In this document: piece after piece, positions 1 to 49,921 of the stretch | Numbering within the stretch: the stretch's first letter is position 1 | How the letters are laid out: every line of letters begins with the position of its first letter | Origin: Patescibacteria group bacterium | GTDB taxonomy: Bacteria > Patescibacteriota > Patescibacteriia > Patescibacteriales > UBA12465 | Length of the DNA stretch: 49,921 nucleotides | Direction of reading: 5' to 3' | Assembly: GCA_050943055.1 (NCBI GenBank) | Contig: JBMNOL010000006.1 | Span: forward strand, 1 to 49,921 | The notes under the pieces: generated by a model | The model's database searches: none | The model's input: only the letters and a program-made list of their open reading frames with translations | Told to the model about the DNA's origin: nothing | Translations under genes and position numbers: made by a program

Positions 1-115
1 CGCTATTTCAAGCGGCGAGGATGCAGACGAATGTCGGACGAATATCCGAGGGATATTCGGACGCCAACTCTGGACAAGTGAGCTTTTCGGAAGAAAAGCG
101 AGCGCGATGATTACT
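1..115 (+). repeat. GC-rich structured non-coding element, copy A (may extend beyond the window start)
   Basis: Hairpins cgaatatcc/ggatattcg and gcttttc/gaaaagc. Motifs caagcggcgag (9-19) and tctggacaagtgagc (69-83) recur on the - strand at 45659-45669 and 45564-45578. Confidence 0.6.
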
Positions 116-170
116 TTAGGGATTACAAAAACAAAAAGACTCCTTGATTGAAATCTTTTTGGTGTTAAAT

Positions 171-602
171 TTATTGAGTGGGTTCAAAATCTACTAAATA
201 AGTTTTAATAAATTTTTCAATCGCTTTAATAACTTCTTGTTTTAATTTTGGCGGACTTTGCGCGATCCAAACAGAAAAATTATAAAGCTCTTTAGAATCA
301 ACTTTGAGCCATTTATCGTTAATATATAAAAAAACCAAAAGAGAGGTAACGGCAATCCGCTTATTACTATTTTGAAAAGGATGATTTTTTATTAATAGGT
401 AAAACAAAATTGCTCCTTTGCCGATAAGGCCGGTGTATAAATTTTTTCTTTCAAATTTCTGGAACGGGGTCGCGATACAGCTCTCCAATATATTCGGATA
501 TCTGGTCTCAAATTTTGGTATCGGCTCATCCCACTCTAAGGTATCCTCGGCCAAAGAGAAAGCGATATATTGTATTTTTTCTAAAGTTATTGGTTTAACC
601 AT
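171..602 (-). CDS. Fic/Doc family (death-on-curing type) toxin
   Basis: HPFQNSNKR matches the Doc-type motif HxFx(D/N)(G/A)NKR; 143 aa; directly downstream of a small HTH gene. Confidence 0.85.
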   Translation of the reverse strand: MVKPITLEKIQYIAFSLAEDTLEWDEPIPKFETRYPNILESCIATPFQKFERKNLYTGLIGKGAILFYLLIKNHPFQNSNKRIAVTSLLVFLYINDKWLKVDSKELYNFSVWIAQSPPKLKQEVIKAIEKFIKTYLVDFEPTQ

Positions 603-603
603 A

Positions 604-876
604 TTACTCTTTACCTAACATCTTTAAAGTTTCGCCGTAATCACGAATAACCTTGCTAACACCTTTTTTAATTTTTACTTTTTCTTCTTCTGATAGATTA
701 TTATCAATAATGCCGGTTAATTGATCCTTCGGGATTAGATAAGTTTTGCCGGCTTTTGTCGCCATAAGTTGTTCTTTTTTTATTTTATTAAAAACAGCGA
801 TACGACTTATACCTAAAATATCGGCTAACTGTTTTACTGTTAAAAAGTTTTGATTTTGATTATTTATATTTTTCAT
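604..876 (-). CDS. Excisionase-like HTH protein, probable antitoxin of the Doc toxin
   Basis: LTVKQLADILGISRIAVFNKIKK...AGKTYLIP is an HTH_17/Xis-like signature; C-terminal helix VIRDYGETLKML; 1 bp gap to the toxin gene. Confidence 0.7.
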   Translation of the reverse strand: MKNINNQNQNFLTVKQLADILGISRIAVFNKIKKEQLMATKAGKTYLIPKDQLTGIIDNNLSEEEKVKIKKGVSKVIRDYGETLKMLGKE

Positions 877-15800: not shown

Positions 15801-17063
15801 ATGGCCAACTACTCAGGAAAATTAATTGTCATTGACGGAACCGACGGCTCCGGCAAAACAACCCAATTAAACTTGCTCGCGGAGCGCTTGAAGCAAGAGG
15901 GTTTTTTGGTGGAGATTGCCGATTTTCCACAATACAATACTAAGTCCGCTGGCCCGATTGAAGAATATCTCTCCGGTAAATATGGCGGTCCCGGAGAAGT
16001 TACTCCTTACCAAGCATCAATTTTTTACGCCGTTGACCGTTTTGATGCCAATTTTAAAATTAAAAAATGGTTACAAGAAGGAAAGATTGTTTTATCTAAC
16101 CGCTACGTCTCCGCCAACATGGGGCATCAAGGCGCCAAAATAAGTAATTCTCTGGAACGTAAAGTCTTTTTTAATTGGCTCAACGATTTAGAATATAAAT
16201 TGTTCAATATCTCTCAGCCCGACCTATCGTTAATCCTTCACGTTCCAGCCGAAATTTCCTTCACCTTGGCTAAAGATCGGCAGCGCGAAGATTGGGTGGG
16301 CAAGACCAAAGATATTCACGAAAATGATATCAATCATCTCCGCTCAGCTGAAGAAGTTTATTTAGAAATTGCCAAAACTATCCCGGGTTTTACTTTAATT
16401 GAATGCGCCGCCGGTAATAAGATTTTAGATCGAGAAGAAATTAGCGAATTGATTTGGGTGCAAGTCCGTCGCTTATTAAACGGCAGCCTAAGTAAAAAAG
16501 AGAGTAGCTTTAAAGCGGTCGCCGAAATTATTAGTAAAAACAAGCAGATCCAAAGCCATAAAGATTTTTTCTTTAAAAAAGAAGAAACCCTCAAGTCGAT
16601 AACAAAAACGGGGATAGAAAAACCGGAAATCGCGGAATTACCGATATTAAAAGTAGAGCGTTTAAGAGAAGAAGCAAAGTTGCCAACCAAGGCTTACGCT
16701 CATGACGCCGGTTTGGATTTATACGCCGCCGAAACCGTCTCCATCGCCCCCTACGGCCAAACAGCTGTCAAAACCGGAATCAGAATCGCTATTCCCGAAA
16801 ACCAAGTCGGTTTAATTTGGGACAAAAGCGGAATGGCTAAAGAAGGTTTAACCACCTTAGGTGGAGTGATTGACGCCGGTTATCGCGGGGAAATCTTAGT
16901 TTTACTTAAGAATTTAGGTGAAGATATTTACCATATTTTACCGGGGCAGAAAATTGCTCAATTAATTATTCAGCCGCTCACTACTTTTAAACTAGAAGAG
17001 GGGACAGTGCCCCAAGAAACGGAACGCGGTCAAGGTGGATTTGGCAGCAGTGGCCAATTTTAA
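15801..17063 (+). CDS. tmk-dut: Thymidylate kinase-dUTPase fusion protein
   Basis: N-terminal IDGTDGSGKTT, FYAVDR, NRYVSANMGHQ and PDL (Tmk); C-terminal DAGLDL, DKSG, GVIDAGYRGEI, KIAQL and RGQGGFGSSG (all five trimeric dUTPase motifs); one uninterrupted ORF. Confidence 0.9.
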   Translation: MANYSGKLIVIDGTDGSGKTTQLNLLAERLKQEGFLVEIADFPQYNTKSAGPIEEYLSGKYGGPGEVTPYQASIFYAVDRFDANFKIKKWLQEGKIVLSNRYVSANMGHQGAKISNSLERKVFFNWLNDLEYKLFNISQPDLSLILHVPAEISFTLAKDRQREDWVGKTKDIHENDINHLRSAEEVYLEIAKTIPGFTLIECAAGNKILDREEISELIWVQVRRLLNGSLSKKESSFKAVAEIISKNKQIQSHKDFFFKKEETLKSITKTGIEKPEIAELPILKVERLREEAKLPTKAYAHDAGLDLYAAETVSIAPYGQTAVKTGIRIAIPENQVGLIWDKSGMAKEGLTTLGGVIDAGYRGEILVLLKNLGEDIYHILPGQKIAQLIIQPLTTFKLEEGTVPQETERGQGGFGSSGQF

Positions 17064-44170: not shown

Positions 44171-45043
44171 ATGAAATTTTTTGTTCTTTATTTTTTTTCC
44201 AGCAGCCTCATTATCCTCGCCATTTTATTTTTTCAGCACCAACATTTTAAGAAAAAACTCTTTAAAAAAGAAGAAGCCTTTAAAGACCAAATCCATCAAG
44301 CTTTATTGGACTTTAAAAAAAATAAAGCTAAAGAGTTAGAAAATTATCACTGCCTAGCTGAGGTTGGCCGCCTGACCAGCGGAATCCTTCATGATCTCGT
44401 TAACCCGTTGACAGCTCTAATTCTAAACCTAGAGCAAACCCGCTTTTCTAATTTAAGTGAAATCAAGGTGGACGAATGGGAGCAAAAACTAAATGAAGGC
44501 AGCATTTTATGCGACCGGATGACGCGGCTCATAAAAGCCGCCAGTAAACAGCTTAGCGCTCAAGCGGAAGAGAAAGACTGGTTTTTGATTAATGAAGAAA
44601 TAATTAATGTTTTAAATCTTCTTAATTATAAAGCCCAGCTCCATCAGGTAAACTTGCGCAGTAATTTAGAGGAAAATCTATTTTTAAATAATAACTCTAT
44701 AAAGTTTAACCGAATTATCTCTAATTTGGTTAGCAATGCGATTGAGGCAGTCGATACTAATAAAAAATCTTCTTGGGTAGAAATAAAAACTCGCGCCGCT
44801 AACGATCACTTGCTAATAACTATTACCGACAATGGCTTAGGTTTTCCTAACCACCTAAAAGATAAACTATTTGAACCGTTCTTTAGCACTAAAGGCGGCG
44901 GCCACAATTTAGGCTTAGGCCTAGCCATTGTTTTGGATTTAGTCAAAAAAGATTTTTCCGGCGACTTGCGCGTTGTCAGTGCGGCGGGAAAATTTACCAG
45001 CTTCACTATTGATTTACCCCTAAACAAAAAGACCTCAGAGTAG
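44171..45043 (+). CDS. Sensor histidine kinase (one TM, HisKA + HATPase_c)
   Basis: H-box GILHDLVNP, N-box NLVSNAIEA, DNGLG, FEPFFSTK and GLGLAIV. Confidence 0.9.
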   Translation: MKFFVLYFFSSSLIILAILFFQHQHFKKKLFKKEEAFKDQIHQALLDFKKNKAKELENYHCLAEVGRLTSGILHDLVNPLTALILNLEQTRFSNLSEIKVDEWEQKLNEGSILCDRMTRLIKAASKQLSAQAEEKDWFLINEEIINVLNLLNYKAQLHQVNLRSNLEENLFLNNNSIKFNRIISNLVSNAIEAVDTNKKSSWVEIKTRAANDHLLITITDNGLGFPNHLKDKLFEPFFSTKGGGHNLGLGLAIVLDLVKKDFSGDLRVVSAAGKFTSFTIDLPLNKKTSE

Positions 45044-45074
45044 AGGTCTAGTTAGTTAATTAATTACTTAAAAA

Positions 45075-45417
45075 AACAATTGTTTTAATTCTGTAAAAAT
45101 TTACTCTTTTTTTGGTGCTCACCAATACCAACACGCCCAAAAATATTAGAAGCGCTATAACAGTTGGTGATAATAACAGCGGGAATACTCCCCCTTAAAA
45201 CCGCTCTCGGCGAGATGTTTGTAAAGAATCGCACCATAAGCCCAAACCAACGCTAGGACATAAGCACTGGAGTGATCTTTAAGTGTGCGCCAGGAGCTAA
45301 TACCCCCCCCACCACCAGTAAAATTGCAACTGTCCAAAAAACTTCAGAAAGACCAAATCTATTCCAGCCGATTTTTACCAAAAAAACAGTAATATTAGCA
45401 ATGGCGGCCACCGTAAT
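45075..45417 (-). pseudogene. Frameshifted 3' fragment of a Trp-rich (TspO-like) membrane protein gene
   Basis: Joined frames read ITVAAIANITVFLVKIGWNRFGLSEVFWTVAILLVVGG / WRTLKDHSSAYVLALVWAYGAILYKH...GFKGEY / PAVII / VIALLIFLGVLVL. One frameshift is at a G8 run (45303-45310) and the 5' end is missing. Confidence 0.55.
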
Positions 45418-45509
45418 CGCAATAGTTCAATAGCTTGGCCAGGCCTGCCCCAAAAACCATATCAACCTGTCTAAAGTATAAAAAAACAAGCTATTAGCTT
45501 GTTTTTTAT

Positions 45510-45700
45510 TGGGTGCTCGGGGACAAAGATTTTCGCCCTCACCCGCTCGCAGAAATCGGGCGGGCTCGCTTGTCCAGACCGGCCGCTGAGCCCTACGCCA
45601 GCTCGGGCTCAGCATCGCTCCCCTTTTCGCTCGCGCTTCCGCTCTCGCTCAAGACTCGCTCGCCGCTTGTTCGAATCCCCGCCTCTTCGAGGCGTACCCA
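45510..45700 (-). repeat. GC-rich structured non-coding element, copy B
   Basis: Terminal pairing tgggt/accca and gggga/tcccc; nested stems ggacaa/ttgtcc, cccgctcg/cgggcggg, gctgagccc/gggctcagc and gcctc/gaggc; shares ordered motifs with 1-115; flanked by hairpins at 45481-45507 and 45698-45736. Confidence 0.6.
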
Positions 45701-45809
45701 AAATAAAAAACTGCATTTGCAGTCTTTTATTTTTGGTGCTCGAGGTCGCGGACGATGTTCGAACTAGTGTGGCTAAGTTCTGATGAAAATATAGGGCTTG
45801 ATCCTATTA

Positions 45810-46207
45810 TTAATCTAAACACATTGATTCTTTTGAGACTGTGCCCATAATTACTTGCTTAACACAGCCAGTTATTGGTTCATCAGGATAGCAAGTTCCC
45901 GTTATATTTATCAAAGGGCTGTCAATAAGATTGATTTTTTGTTCTTCAGTTAATGTCGGCGGAAAACAAACTCCACTTTTACACTGCCCCCATCAGTACA
46001 TATCTCACCAGCCTCTTTATAAGAAACTAAGCATTTATTTTGTTCTACAGACCAATCACCTCCGACGCTTTCACAGCCCTGTTTATTTTTTTGAGGATTG
46101 TTTGCCGGTAATGAATTATAAATAAAACCCAAAATAATTCCCAATAATATAATAATCACTATCACCCCACATATTATCAGAATTTTATTAGAGTTATTTT
46201 TCTTCAT
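45810..46207 (-). pseudogene. Membrane-anchored Cys-rich protein interrupted by a frameshift in a G5 run
   Basis: Adding one G at 45987-45991 joins ...EAGEICTDGG to QCKSGVCFPPTL...GTCYPDEPITGCVKQVIMGTVSKESMCLD*. Confidence 0.7.
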
Positions 46208-46245
46208 ACTGTTTCATAATTATTATATTATTAAAACAGGCAGAA

Positions 46246-46515
46246 TCAGTCCCTGGTATTAGGATTAATTTGAGTAGCCAGTATTATTTTTTTAACCAAA
46301 TCTTTGCTTGAAGTACTATTATCATAAGTTACATCCATGTCATCAGCAATAAATTTTAATCTTTCTAAAGAAAGTTCGTCTTCTTTTTCTGCAAGTGATT
46401 CGAGAAATTTAAAATTTGGTTGACCGTGTTCATTGCGCCATGCCTCTATTTTTTCTTTTTCCTGTTTACTCGATGTATCGTTTTCGTTTGTAAAGTCATT
46501 ATTATCTTATTCCAT
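46246..46515 (-). pseudogene. Small acidic protein gene with an in-frame TAA at codon 3
   Basis: ATG GAA TAA, then an open frame DNNDFTNEND...AWRNEHGQPNFKFLESLAEKEDELSLERLKFIADDMDV...NTRD* that fills the intergenic gap. Confidence 0.6.
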
Positions 46516-47412: not shown

Positions 47413-48642
47413 TTACTCCGTGCTTACCGCTATCTGACCGCATTTTTCTTTAACTTCTCCCGCTAAAGTAATTACATCATCTATATTGGGTTCAAAAGCT
47501 TCTAGTTTATCTCCATTTTTAAGTTCGACTTTAACAACGTTATCGTGAGTTTGTATAATTTTATCCACTTCACAATTATTTATGGCCAAGCTTAATCCCG
47601 TCCAAGCTGGGTCAATCAAAGGACAGGCCGTTAAACAATAATCGCTTTTCTTGCCCAATAGTTGGTTAGTAACTATAAGCAAAGCTTCTAGGTTGGGCTC
47701 GCGACTAAAACCTTTCATCGTCGCCACTAAAGAATTTTCGGTTACCTCTTTTATCATCCAAATACTAAATCCCGGTTCTAATTTCTGCACGCTCCAATCG
47801 ACTCTAGGACCTCGAATGGTTCCAACGGACAATTTATCTCGGAAAGAATACAAACCATTATTATATCCAACCATAATTAGCGGATAATTTTTTTGTGGCG
47901 CTTGACTGAGCCAACCTTCCTCCATTAAATCGACCGCGTCCTTATCTATCCAAATAGCGACTTTGTTGGCGACACTTGCCTGTAAGACTTCAAAGCTGTT
48001 AACTTCTAAAATTTCCGGATGCTGACGTAAGGCTTCTTCTGATATTTGGCCGGAATCTTTTGGTTTTAAATAAACAGCTTCAATAGGAAGAAGAGGATTG
48101 CCTTGTAAAATTTCTTCTACCCCTTCAAAACCGGTAATGAAAGCAAAATTATAACGCGCCGGCAAGGCAAAAACATAATTGGCATTACGTCCCAGTTCTC
48201 TCGGTCCAATTGGCGCCGCGCTAACAACCATTTTTCCATCCTGAACAAGACCCCATTGATCTAAGGTAAATACCATAATTGGAATATCCTGGCGTGGATT
48301 TTCAGCAGTCCACTCTGGATGTCTGATAAGTATTTCGGGGCCGGAAATTACTTCGGCCGCCTCGGTCGTTCCCTGCGCATCAAGAATCTGACCCCTCCAG
48401 GTGTCTAAAACAACGGAATAATTATTCCAGGTTACCGGTAAAGAAAAAACAAAGCCATATTCAATATTTTGGTATTGCGATACTTCTACGGATGTGGTTG
48501 CTTGATTGATAACCGGGGAAACTATTTGATTATTTGCAATATTCCAATCGGATATCGACGTTGCTCCATTTATAAAGTAAATAGAAATTATTGCCACTAA
48601 AAAAATGATAAAACCAACGCTAATTAATATTTTTTTGTTCAT
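47413..48642 (-). CDS. Hypothetical secreted/membrane-anchored protein
   Basis: MNKK plus hydrophobic helix; YQNIEYGFVFSLP (PsbP-like start); appears multi-domain. Confidence 0.7.
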   Translation of the reverse strand: MNKKILISVGFIIFLVAIISIYFINGATSISDWNIANNQIVSPVINQATTSVEVSQYQNIEYGFVFSLPVTWNNYSVVLDTWRGQILDAQGTTEAAEVISGPEILIRHPEWTAENPRQDIPIMVFTLDQWGLVQDGKMVVSAAPIGPRELGRNANYVFALPARYNFAFITGFEGVEEILQGNPLLPIEAVYLKPKDSGQISEEALRQHPEILEVNSFEVLQASVANKVAIWIDKDAVDLMEEGWLSQAPQKNYPLIMVGYNNGLYSFRDKLSVGTIRGPRVDWSVQKLEPGFSIWMIKEVTENSLVATMKGFSREPNLEALLIVTNQLLGKKSDYCLTACPLIDPAWTGLSLAINNCEVDKIIQTHDNVVKVELKNGDKLEAFEPNIDDVITLAGEVKEKCGQIAVSTE

Positions 48643-48681
48643 ATTTTTAAATATTTATTATCTAATGGAGTGTAATTTTAA

Positions 48682-49716
48682 TTAGCTTCTTATTTTTTCA
48701 ATTTCCGAATCTACTAAAATATCTAAATCAAAACTTTCTCTTTCTGTTTTACACTTAATACTTTCTTCTTTTGGGTAGTTATCACAATTTGAATAACGGG
48801 CGACAAATTGTACTGAATAAACATTATCTCCTATTACTGTTGTGTAGGCGTATTGCGTATAGACAGATCCCGCCGCTTCTTCACTAGAAGCGCCTATACA
48901 GTATTTATGGCCGTTTATTTCCTTTTTACTTATTCGAAGAGGTAAGCTAGATTCTAGAGGAGTTTCATTACACGCTATTTCACCATTTTCTACCCAAGAC
49001 TCTAATTTGGGATATTCTTCGGCTTTAAATATATTCGAACTATAATTCTGAAATGAAATATAATTCGCCTTAAAACTATCTGGTAAATTTGATTCAATGT
49101 CTTTCTCCTCTGTATATAAATGCTTAACACCTACTACCTTGATTGTGCCTAAAGTTTTATAAATGTCGCTTTCTTCGTTTATCAGCTCCCCGCTAATTTC
49201 TATTTTTTGCCCCTTTCTTATCTTATTAACTACATTATTTTTATCATCACTAGCTGCCTGCAGGCGATAATAATCGCCACTACTATTCTTAATACCAAAT
49301 ACACATAAATCATTATGGGGTATATTTTCATCTTTTAGGGGCAAACAAACAAACTCTCCAGTAACTTTAAATAAGTCTTTATGAATTTCATCATACTGTT
49401 TTTGAATTTCAGAGAGAGTTATTTCCTCAAGATTATTTTCTAATTTCCCTGCTTCATTGATGGTCAAATTTCCGCAATCACAAAGTATTTTTTTACCACA
49501 CAAAGTTGATATGCTACCACAAGGAACTTGAACATTATTATATTCTTTACAGCCAAATAAACCCTCGCAGGTTTTCAAGTTGAACTCACAATACCCTTTT
49601 TCTGGATATACTTTAAAATCTTTATCACAGCTATTTGGGATTAAAAAAAATAAAGCAACAAGAATTAATAACAAAAAAACAAAAGAATAGATTAAAATTT
49701 TGAATTGCCTTTTCAT
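48682..49716 (-). CDS. Hypothetical membrane-anchored Cys-rich protein
   Basis: N-terminal TM, a Cys cluster at aa ~30-82 and further Cys pairs; 344 aa. Confidence 0.7.
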   Translation of the reverse strand: MKRQFKILIYSFVFLLLILVALFFLIPNSCDKDFKVYPEKGYCEFNLKTCEGLFGCKEYNNVQVPCGSISTLCGKKILCDCGNLTINEAGKLENNLEEITLSEIQKQYDEIHKDLFKVTGEFVCLPLKDENIPHNDLCVFGIKNSSGDYYRLQAASDDKNNVVNKIRKGQKIEISGELINEESDIYKTLGTIKVVGVKHLYTEEKDIESNLPDSFKANYISFQNYSSNIFKAEEYPKLESWVENGEIACNETPLESSLPLRISKKEINGHKYCIGASSEEAAGSVYTQYAYTTVIGDNVYSVQFVARYSNCDNYPKEESIKCKTERESFDLDILVDSEIEKIRS

Positions 49717-49921
49717 GATACTTAAAATTTAAATATTAACTATCTATAGTGTATTACAATACAAAGTTTGTTAAAAGTTCGAATCCCGTCCCCCCCGCAC
49801 TGAAGTAAAATCGCTTTTATTTTTGATTTTAGAGAGTATATCAAACGGCTCTTTATAAGAAATATTAGCGATTTTTTTATTACTAATTTCAGCGTTCCAA
49901 AGTAAAGAATCTAAGATTTCT

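Follow-up and report, generated by a model that had tools for sequence, protein, structure and literature searches.

A folded, protein-less unit behind tRNA genes of Patescibacteria, a candidate site-specific insertion element aimed at the tRNA T loop

We observed that the window (the whole stretch of DNA that was analysed, 49,921 nt of contig C3) contained two copies of a small structured unit, copy A on the forward strand at the very start of the contig, and copy B on the reverse strand. These were the only window matches to a covariance model built from relatives, and the scores were far beyond chance (58.5 bits for copy A at 1-126, and 110.8 bits with an E-value of about 1e-32 for copy B at 45514-45685). 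A sequence-only reading of the window had described them as a two-copy element. The motifs that it listed were all found in place, including tctggacaagYgagc (69-83 and 45564-45578) and, after the second hairpin of each copy, gagSgcgaWRatY. The genome (G000, 613 kb in 13 contigs), however, was seen to contain seven distinct copies by BLAST and the covariance model, and many more were present in relatives.

The unit is about 170 nt long (about 210-250 nt including its terminator), encodes no protein and is rich in GC and in purines. When copies were aligned together with their flanks, the order from 5' to 3' was constant: a tRNA gene, a terminator (T0), often a small variable GC hairpin, a box that we call the anti-T box (e.g. 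GGGGAATCGAAC; the name was chosen to avoid confusion with T-box riboswitches), a core, a 3' box, a tail and a further terminator (T1). The purine-rich core comprises a closing helix (P2), an irregular hairpin with a GGAA cap (P2a), a variable hairpin (P2b), the unpaired CTGGACAAGTGAGC and another variable hairpin (P3). It is followed by the box GAGCGCGATA, by a direct repeat of the final ~17 bases of the tRNA that precedes the unit, and by T1. The 3' box GAGCGCGATAA has only a loose likeness to a Xer arm. The features of the two copies, in window positions unless a contig is named, are as follows.

1..126, + strand: copy A core, with the 5' end lost at the contig start (model match C3:1-126, C12:21638-21806)
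C12:21600-21680: terminator, small hairpin and anti-T box GGGGAATCGAAC of copy A, corresponding to the first 43 model bases
39..59, + strand: helix P2b of copy A, cgaatatcc / ggatattcg, covarying pair by pair
69..83, + strand: conserved unpaired junction of copy A, tctggacaagtgagc, in nearly invariant alignment columns
82..99, + strand: helix P3 of copy A, gcttttc ggaa gaaaagc
100..126, + strand: 3' box of copy A, gagcgcgatga, and then a decayed copy of the tRNA-Glu 3' end
171..876, - strand: accessory genes just past copy A, for a Fic/Doc-family protein (143 aa) and an HTH protein (90 aa), by Pfam
45481..45507, - strand: downstream terminator (T1) of copy B
45512..45531, - strand: tail of copy B, aatctttgtccccgagcac, a direct copy of the tRNA-Gln(ttg) 3' end
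45514..45685, - strand: copy B, a complete element by the covariance model (110.8 bits)
45541..45565, - strand: helix P3 of copy B
45564..45578, - strand: conserved junction of copy B, tctggacaagcgagc
45585..45613, - strand: helix P2b of copy B, gctgagccc / gggctcagc
45669..45680, - strand: anti-T box of copy B, GGGGATTCGAAC, the reverse complement of GTTCGAATCCCC
45680..45694, - strand: small variable hairpin of copy B, cgcctc-gaa-gaggcg
45700..45734, - strand: upstream terminator hairpin (T0) of copy B
45735..45767, - strand: decayed tRNA-Gln-like 3' fragment upstream of copy B

Contig C12 carries an array behind tRNA-Glu(ctc), and its second unit is copy A; the two were equated because C12 and C3 overlap by 127 nt. 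Its tail is decayed (ttactttagggattac, compared with ttcccctagggactac at the 3' end of tRNA-Glu). Copy A is flanked by different Fic/Doc-family genes, at C12:20330-21600 (L003:1676-2704, - strand) and in the window at 171-876 (- strand). One encodes a 342-aa Fic protein with the HPFxxGNGR motif, and the other the 143-aa Doc-like protein with its HTH partner. In a relative (G057), the Fic gene comes after tRNA-Glu(ttc) without an element.

Copy B matches tRNA-Gln(ttg), whose gene lies on contig C2 and ends in aatccctgtccccgagc; its anti-T box agrees at 11 of 12 positions with the T arm GTTCGAATCCCT of this tRNA. No intact tRNA was found upstream of copy B at 45735..45767, the decayed tRNA-Gln-like fragment being all that is seen there. 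The T1 hairpin of copy B also occurs behind tRNA-Gln(ttg) in the relative G139, as the T0 of a near-identical element, which fits a circularly permutable unit. The string caagcggcgag, which the earlier reading had paired between the two copies, is indeed shared at 11/11 letters, but its position is not homologous. In our alignments it falls at the junction of the anti-T box and P2 in copy B, and inside a subtype-specific P2a insertion in copy A. ORFs overlapping copy B were considered as coding sequences and rejected, because the copies differ by indels of 1-2 nt and 13 nt and by compensatory pairs.

Upstream of copy B there is an ORF for a small predicted membrane protein (45950-46207 and 45780-45950, - strand), which seems to run on out of frame beyond its stop; the stretch 45737-46479 is covered by RNA-library contigs at over 99% identity. 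Six metatranscriptome runs contain parts of window 44900-46300, and Logan contigs of four RNA-library runs include pieces over 45533-45680 that carry 2-12 differences, with loose ends that match other copies. Contigs of RNA libraries do not in themselves establish transcription. A lone fragment resembling the 3' half of a tRNA was seen at 49777-49799 (+ strand), consisting of the T loop, the 3' strand of the T stem and the 3' strand of the acceptor without any tRNA body. It is probably a displaced end from an older integration. The genes beside it (47413-49716) gave no Pfam match.

The seven copies of the genome are distributed as follows.

Contig C12: two copies behind tRNA-Glu(ctc), the second being copy A
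Contig C6: one copy behind tRNA-Glu(ttc)
Contig C5: two tandem copies (C5a, C5b) behind tRNA-Trp
Contig C1, at its end: one copy behind tRNA-Ser(gct)
Contig C3, the window contig: copy B

Breaks in the assembly coincide with elements and tRNA 3' ends (C3:1 and the ends of C12, C1 and C13). C1 ends within the element behind tRNA-Ser(gct), and C13 ends at the terminus of tRNA-Gln(ctg). On C5, a remnant lies between tRNA-Trp and C5a (16100-16226, - strand), made up of a terminator, a small hairpin, a decayed anti-T box and 7 nt of core, and followed by ~85 nt of unrelated AT-rich DNA. Together with the two copies, this remnant indicates that the array contains three generations of units. C5b itself is a mosaic of a 5' part like that of copy B and the 3' part of its neighbour, and hence recombination between copies also occurs.

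We estimated the conservation of the fold from two alignments. With MAFFT and RNAalifold, 36 copies gave a structure of 39 pairs, of which 30 were changed on both sides, and 94.2% of the cells were paired as compared to 78.2% in shuffles and 34-42% in slid controls, the structure having been derived from that same alignment. In 69 distinct copies aligned to the covariance model (an alignment that leans towards the model), the values were 93.6% and 72.8%, and 33 of the 39 pairs were changed on both sides. Mismatches within helices were G.A/A.G in 73 cases and C.T/T.C in 10, and G.U in 47 cases and A.C in 32. The excess of G.A/A.G and G.U indicates that the folding strand, if only one strand folds, is the tRNA-sense strand. 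The C6 copy folded better than shuffles on the tRNA-sense strand (z of -3.7, as compared to -2.5), while copy B, taken alone, folded no better than shuffles. The idea that a helix P1 mimics the T-arm duplex with a 2-3-nt bulge was true for ends of the GCGATA type but failed for those of the GAGAGA or GCGGAA type, and was dropped as a general feature.

When the whole window was searched against Rfam 15 at the gathering score, only two tRNAs were matched. At E<=1, four element loci gave tRNAs and chance matches, none of them on the element, and the intron and ribozyme models of Rfam did not match it. Even on a conservative reading, the copies form a new and well-supported structured family that is missing from Rfam. 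The sequence-only reading had noted that the helices hold their position and not their sequence, and covariation across relatives is strong. It had also recognised no Rfam family here, and none matched at gathering or E-value thresholds. Its wider interpretation, a structured RNA family or a non-autonomous mobile or recombination element, is supported by the covariation and by copies that are abundant in the genome, the host family and the order. The reading had missed the key to the element, its fixed link to tRNA genes, and could not show that copy A is cut at the window edge.

The link to tRNA genes was evident from the position of the units, which share the strand of a tRNA gene and follow it at 33-60 nt. 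We scored it in 69 of 83 covariance-model matches (of the 14 left out, six were duplicate fetches of a place, four were additional units from a single tandem array, and four were matches that were weak or truncated). A same-strand upstream tRNA was found inside the fetched locus for 51 of these 69 elements. After removal of identical rows 47 remained, of which 37 had the tRNA less than 70 nt upstream, and the direct repeat could be scored in 36. The repeat began 16 nt before the tRNA end in 26 of the 36, and its far end coincided with the tRNA end or overshot it by 1 nt in 22. Its length was 17-18 nt in 19 of the 36, and reached 39-77 nt where the terminator was repeated too. The tail is a direct copy of tRNA positions of about 58-74, so that the tRNA remains whole, with its former 3' end displaced. 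The targets covered 13 amino-acid types of tRNA (Glu, Gln, Gly, Ser, Trp, His, Lys, Arg, Ala, Val, Leu, Cys and Tyr), as counted over the scored loci, two element-rich genomes and distant relatives.

We observed that the anti-T box also follows the tRNA. It is an 11-nt stretch complementary to tRNA positions 53-63, and is thus centred on 58/59, where the direct repeat begins. Contiguous complementarity counted from position 53 was exactly 11 nt in 22 of the 47 rows and at least 10 nt in 38. The box matched the hexamer of the usual T loop, GTTCGA, in 36 of 40 tRNAs. Where the hexamer was unusual (GTCCGA, GTTCAA), compensating boxes were present in 6 of 7 rows, which amount to five distinct loci as one locus was fetched twice; the single unmatched row was a mis-parsed second tandem copy. 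The box matched at two further loci (L081, L105) with a C at position 59 of the T loop (GTTCGAC). As positions 53-57 are absent from the repeated tail, the box tracks the tRNA itself, and the T stems with G-U pairs (Trp, Val) identify it as the antisense of the 3' strand. Over positions 58-65, cognate tRNAs scored 6.58 of 8 and non-cognate tRNAs 5.80 of 8, and the cognate value was reached in none of 10000 permutations, in which related genomes are not independent of each other.

The element is widespread in the host lineage. With the C6 copy as BLAST query, 88 of the 148 host-family genomes gave a match, and these came from 11 of 16 genera. With the covariance model, 43 of 151 sampled genomes of the order were positive, in 9 of 26 families, with copy counts per genome that are lower bounds, the highest being at least 15, as no more than 18 candidates were scored in each genome. 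A divergent form was present in 3 of 150 sampled genomes from elsewhere in the phylum. These relatives (L176 at G371:C6, L177 in G294 and L178 in G356) belong to other Patescibacteria families, are shorter, at about 140-155 nt, and keep the same layout behind tRNA-Glu and tRNA-Tyr. One divergent tandem array among them has no upstream tRNA, and ends in a terminator and a solo anti-T box with no core. When species-representative genomes were scanned for an exact pattern, 24 loci were obtained, and the covariance model confirmed each of them; their genomes were labelled Candidatus Falkowbacteria or Patescibacteria. Some third-party MAGs among them carried the label Gammaproteobacteria, one Bacillota and one Saccharimonadales. 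Three pattern scans of IMG/VR gave no true match, and no free, viral or plasmid form was found. The 26 IMG/VR loci for a 15-mer were all rejected by the covariance model, and two longer motifs gave no loci. A full-text literature search, judged on the opening parts of abstracts, found no prior description of such an element.

In several relatives, a 20-nt perfect palindrome, CCTGCCTGCCGGCAGGCAGG, is inserted inside the elements or at their edge. It was matched nine times in the fetched loci, eight of these in or adjoining elements (L070, L071, L077, L169 twice, L171 twice and L172, with one more in L141), and was not found in the genome of the window. Most of the insertion points, where the flanks could be read, lie beside a GGAA/TTCC motif, in hairpin loops or at the junction of core and tail. 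The palindrome looks like a second, even smaller insertion sequence targeting these folds.

Several observations bear on whether the unit moves. Behind tRNA-Lys(ctt) in the relative G234 there are five tandem units of 208 nt, four of them identical, each made up of tail, terminator, 7 nt, anti-T box and core. Tandem pairs 200-240 nt apart were common in the survey of the order. Units 1-2.4 kb apart bracket cargo genes (Fic, CYTH, NYN, NUDIX and unknown proteins), while most arrays have no cargo. Genomes of the same genus showed empty sites, in which tRNA-Glu and its terminator are directly followed by the next gene. At a site common to G000 and G059, between tRNA-Glu(ttc) and a patatin gene, the tail, T1 and the downstream DNA are conserved, and the cores are of different subtypes, as are the T0 terminators. 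In a tree of the cores, supported clades mix tRNA species; this tree is poorly resolved (9 of 46 inner branches well supported) and was used for three clades only. Low-scoring copies close to the tRNA within arrays proved to be a divergent subtype rather than decayed units.

We also looked for an enzyme. G000 has one tyrosine recombinase, of the Xer type (best NCBIfam models XerC, XerD and XerA). No integron integrase was found in this genome, its sole tyrosine recombinase scoring 83 bits on the integron-integrase model as compared to a cut-off of 265 bits. G000 also gave no match for a serine recombinase or for IS110 (PF01548), and IS110 was likewise absent from 41 flanking proteins. Among these 41 there was no site-specific recombinase, and one IS481-type transposase. 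Reverse transcriptase (PF00078) gave no match in G000 or in G132, which has at least 14 copies, and was present in three of five genomes. TnpB (PF07282) was not matched in G000, G132, G139 or G234 and was matched once, in G162, and thus in one of five element-rich genomes. Extra tyrosine recombinases of relatives were considered as partners and were not near elements; none of 15 loci for a tyrosine recombinase or a reverse transcriptase had an element closer than about 1.5 kb.

Among known systems, the element resembles the tRNA-targeting integrative islands and their integrase-less derivatives (CIMEs, tycheposon-type islands). In these too, insertion regenerates the tRNA and leaves the displaced 3' end as a direct repeat from the T loop, and there is tandem accretion with accessory or defence genes alongside. 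The repeat of the tRNA 3' part described above is what a tyrosine-integrase island would leave, but no integrase or related full-length island was seen within the fetched flanks. The element, moreover, is only about 210-250 nt long and without genes, and is a covarying multi-helix fold with a target-matched inverted 11-mer. Integron attC sites and the folded single-stranded attP of CTX-type phages keep structure more than sequence, bound gene cassettes in arrays, and use a fold to join two distant segments into a target-like duplex. The covarying helices and the element-cargo-element arrays seen here would fit this pattern in part. However, the element has the tRNA T loop as its target instead of attI or dif, its core shows strong sequence conservation and several branches where a single imperfect hairpin would be expected, most arrays are free of cargo, and G000 lacks an integron integrase.

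The layout also recalls guide RNAs. IS110 bridge RNA, the omega RNA of TnpB and IscB, and the internal guide of group I introns have a scaffold of ~150 nt with short target-matched segments; the 16-17-nt target-identical tail resembles an omega-RNA guide, and the anti-T box extends across the junction in the manner of an internal guide or a bridge loop. In its layout alone, a core followed by a tail of 17-18 nt corresponds to an omega-RNA scaffold followed by a target guide of ~16 nt. As in the dual-strand guides of TIGR-Tas (PMC12045711), both DNA strands could be addressed. On the other hand, no TnpB or IscB nuclease was seen next to an element, the one TnpB match among five genomes being that in G162, and no DEDD recombinase gene of the IS110 kind was found in G000 or among the 41 flanking proteins. 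The Rfam intron and ribozyme models did not match, and no promoter was evident in two loci. A retroelement (a retron, group II intron or SINE-like unit) would call for a reverse transcriptase, which is absent from G000 and G132. MITEs and REP/BIME repeats are equally small, non-coding, multi-copy, assembly-breaking and dependent on functions in trans. The element differs from them in being strictly tied to tRNA 3' ends, and in having no element-specific terminal inverted repeats with a short duplication. Its sole end pairing, between the anti-T box and the tail, is derived from the target and changes with the target tRNA, and its repeat (17-77 nt) is far larger than usual target-site duplications.

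A resident RNA linked to tRNA genes remains a serious rival to a mobile element, even if we find it rather doubtful. Such a structured RNA would be retained by the host and tied to its cognate tRNA, and its copy number would grow through local duplication and gene conversion instead of transposition. It would be co-transcribed through read-through of the tRNA terminator or from a weak promoter, and with its anti-T box and tRNA-like tail it could base-pair to the tRNA, to the tRNA precursor or to the tRNA gene. The strong covariation agrees with this, as do the conserved GGAA tetraloop, the tandem G.A pairs and the many invariant unpaired positions. The copies are, furthermore, GC- and purine-rich islands in a genome of 40% GC, a terminator follows the tail in nearly all units, and the tails are kept identical to the tRNA while the cores have diverged to 74-90%. 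However, a scan of two loci showed no sigma-70-like promoter in the stretch from the upstream terminator to the element (a weak negative), and the 208-nt tandem units leave just 7 nt for one between terminator and box. Different subtypes at one orthologous site, empty sites within a genus and decayed members within arrays are also not what a resident RNA would lead one to expect, and the element is dispensable, since 60 of the 148 family genomes gave no BLAST match.

A 17-18-nt repeat that spans the T loop and the rest of the tRNA is what integration at a tRNA site classically leaves behind (a general principle given in PMC4383910). The copies could be passive, CIME-like scars, that is, att-proximal arm DNA and displaced tRNA 3' ends left by deleted tyrosine-integrase islands or phages, the fold having no role. 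We consider this unlikely, since double-stranded arm sites give no reason for 30 of 39 pairs to covary or for an inverted, tRNA-matched 11-mer, and complete units of only 208 nt repeat perfectly. Accessory and defence-type genes beside and between copies, and the lone tRNA 3' fragment at 49777-49799, would suit such scars, but no integrase adjoined any copy within the fetched flanks, and G234, rich in elements, has a single Xer-like recombinase only. An artefact of assembly or chance, such as a chimeric contig end or low-complexity similarity, might be suspected from the place of copy A at a contig start and of several copies at contig ends. It is refuted by hundreds of copies in independent assemblies, single-contig genomes included, and by covariance-model E-values down to 1e-57, and we give it practically no credence.

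On balance, we favour the reading that copies A and B are non-autonomous, site-specific insertion elements that are aimed at the tRNA T loop and work through a folded single strand. The tandem stacking, the empty sites and the turnover of subtypes argue that the unit moves or is exchanged. The covarying helices and the target-matched inverted 11-mer, being unexpected for double-stranded arm sites, point to single-stranded folded DNA or RNA. The unit may move as a small circle or as a single strand, with a putative crossover at T-loop position 58/59, in the middle of the stretch paired by the anti-T box. The target would be recognised by base pairing of the folded strand (ssDNA or RNA), so that the sense strand would be bound by the anti-T box and the antisense strand by the tail, and the enzyme would be supplied in trans. 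It counts against mobility that no linked enzyme and no free, viral or plasmid form was found in the loci, genomes and IMG/VR scans described above, and that no excision product or within-population empty site was seen. The similarity of cores within a genome could reflect gene conversion rather than transposition, and the strongly conserved unpaired purines, together with the GGAA loop and the tandem G.A pairs, would be more typical of a functional RNA than of a recombination site.

It is conceivable, and we put this forward tentatively, that the element is a mobile unit without genes and that its own folded strand does the targeting, in a two-strand, bridge-like synapse that is resolved by a host enzyme or by the RNA itself. 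In such a synapse the anti-T box would pair with the sense strand across the crossover (positions 53-63) and the tail with the antisense strand (59-74), and the host enzyme could be, for example, the single Xer-like recombinase. If true, the ultra-small Patescibacteria would be home to a new class of site-specific insertion guided by nucleic acids, or to a new ribozyme-like RNA. These organisms have tiny genomes and few recognisable mobile elements, yet they carry a structured unit of 170 nt at up to at least 15 copies per genome. The element breaks assemblies, and shapes the variable, defence-gene-rich regions behind tRNA genes. Its choice of target can be read from the sequence, as the 11-mer and the 17-mer both follow the neighbouring tRNA. 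If targeting by base pairing is true, the element would be a minimal programmable insertion module, and would explain the exchange of accessory cassettes in organisms without integrases.
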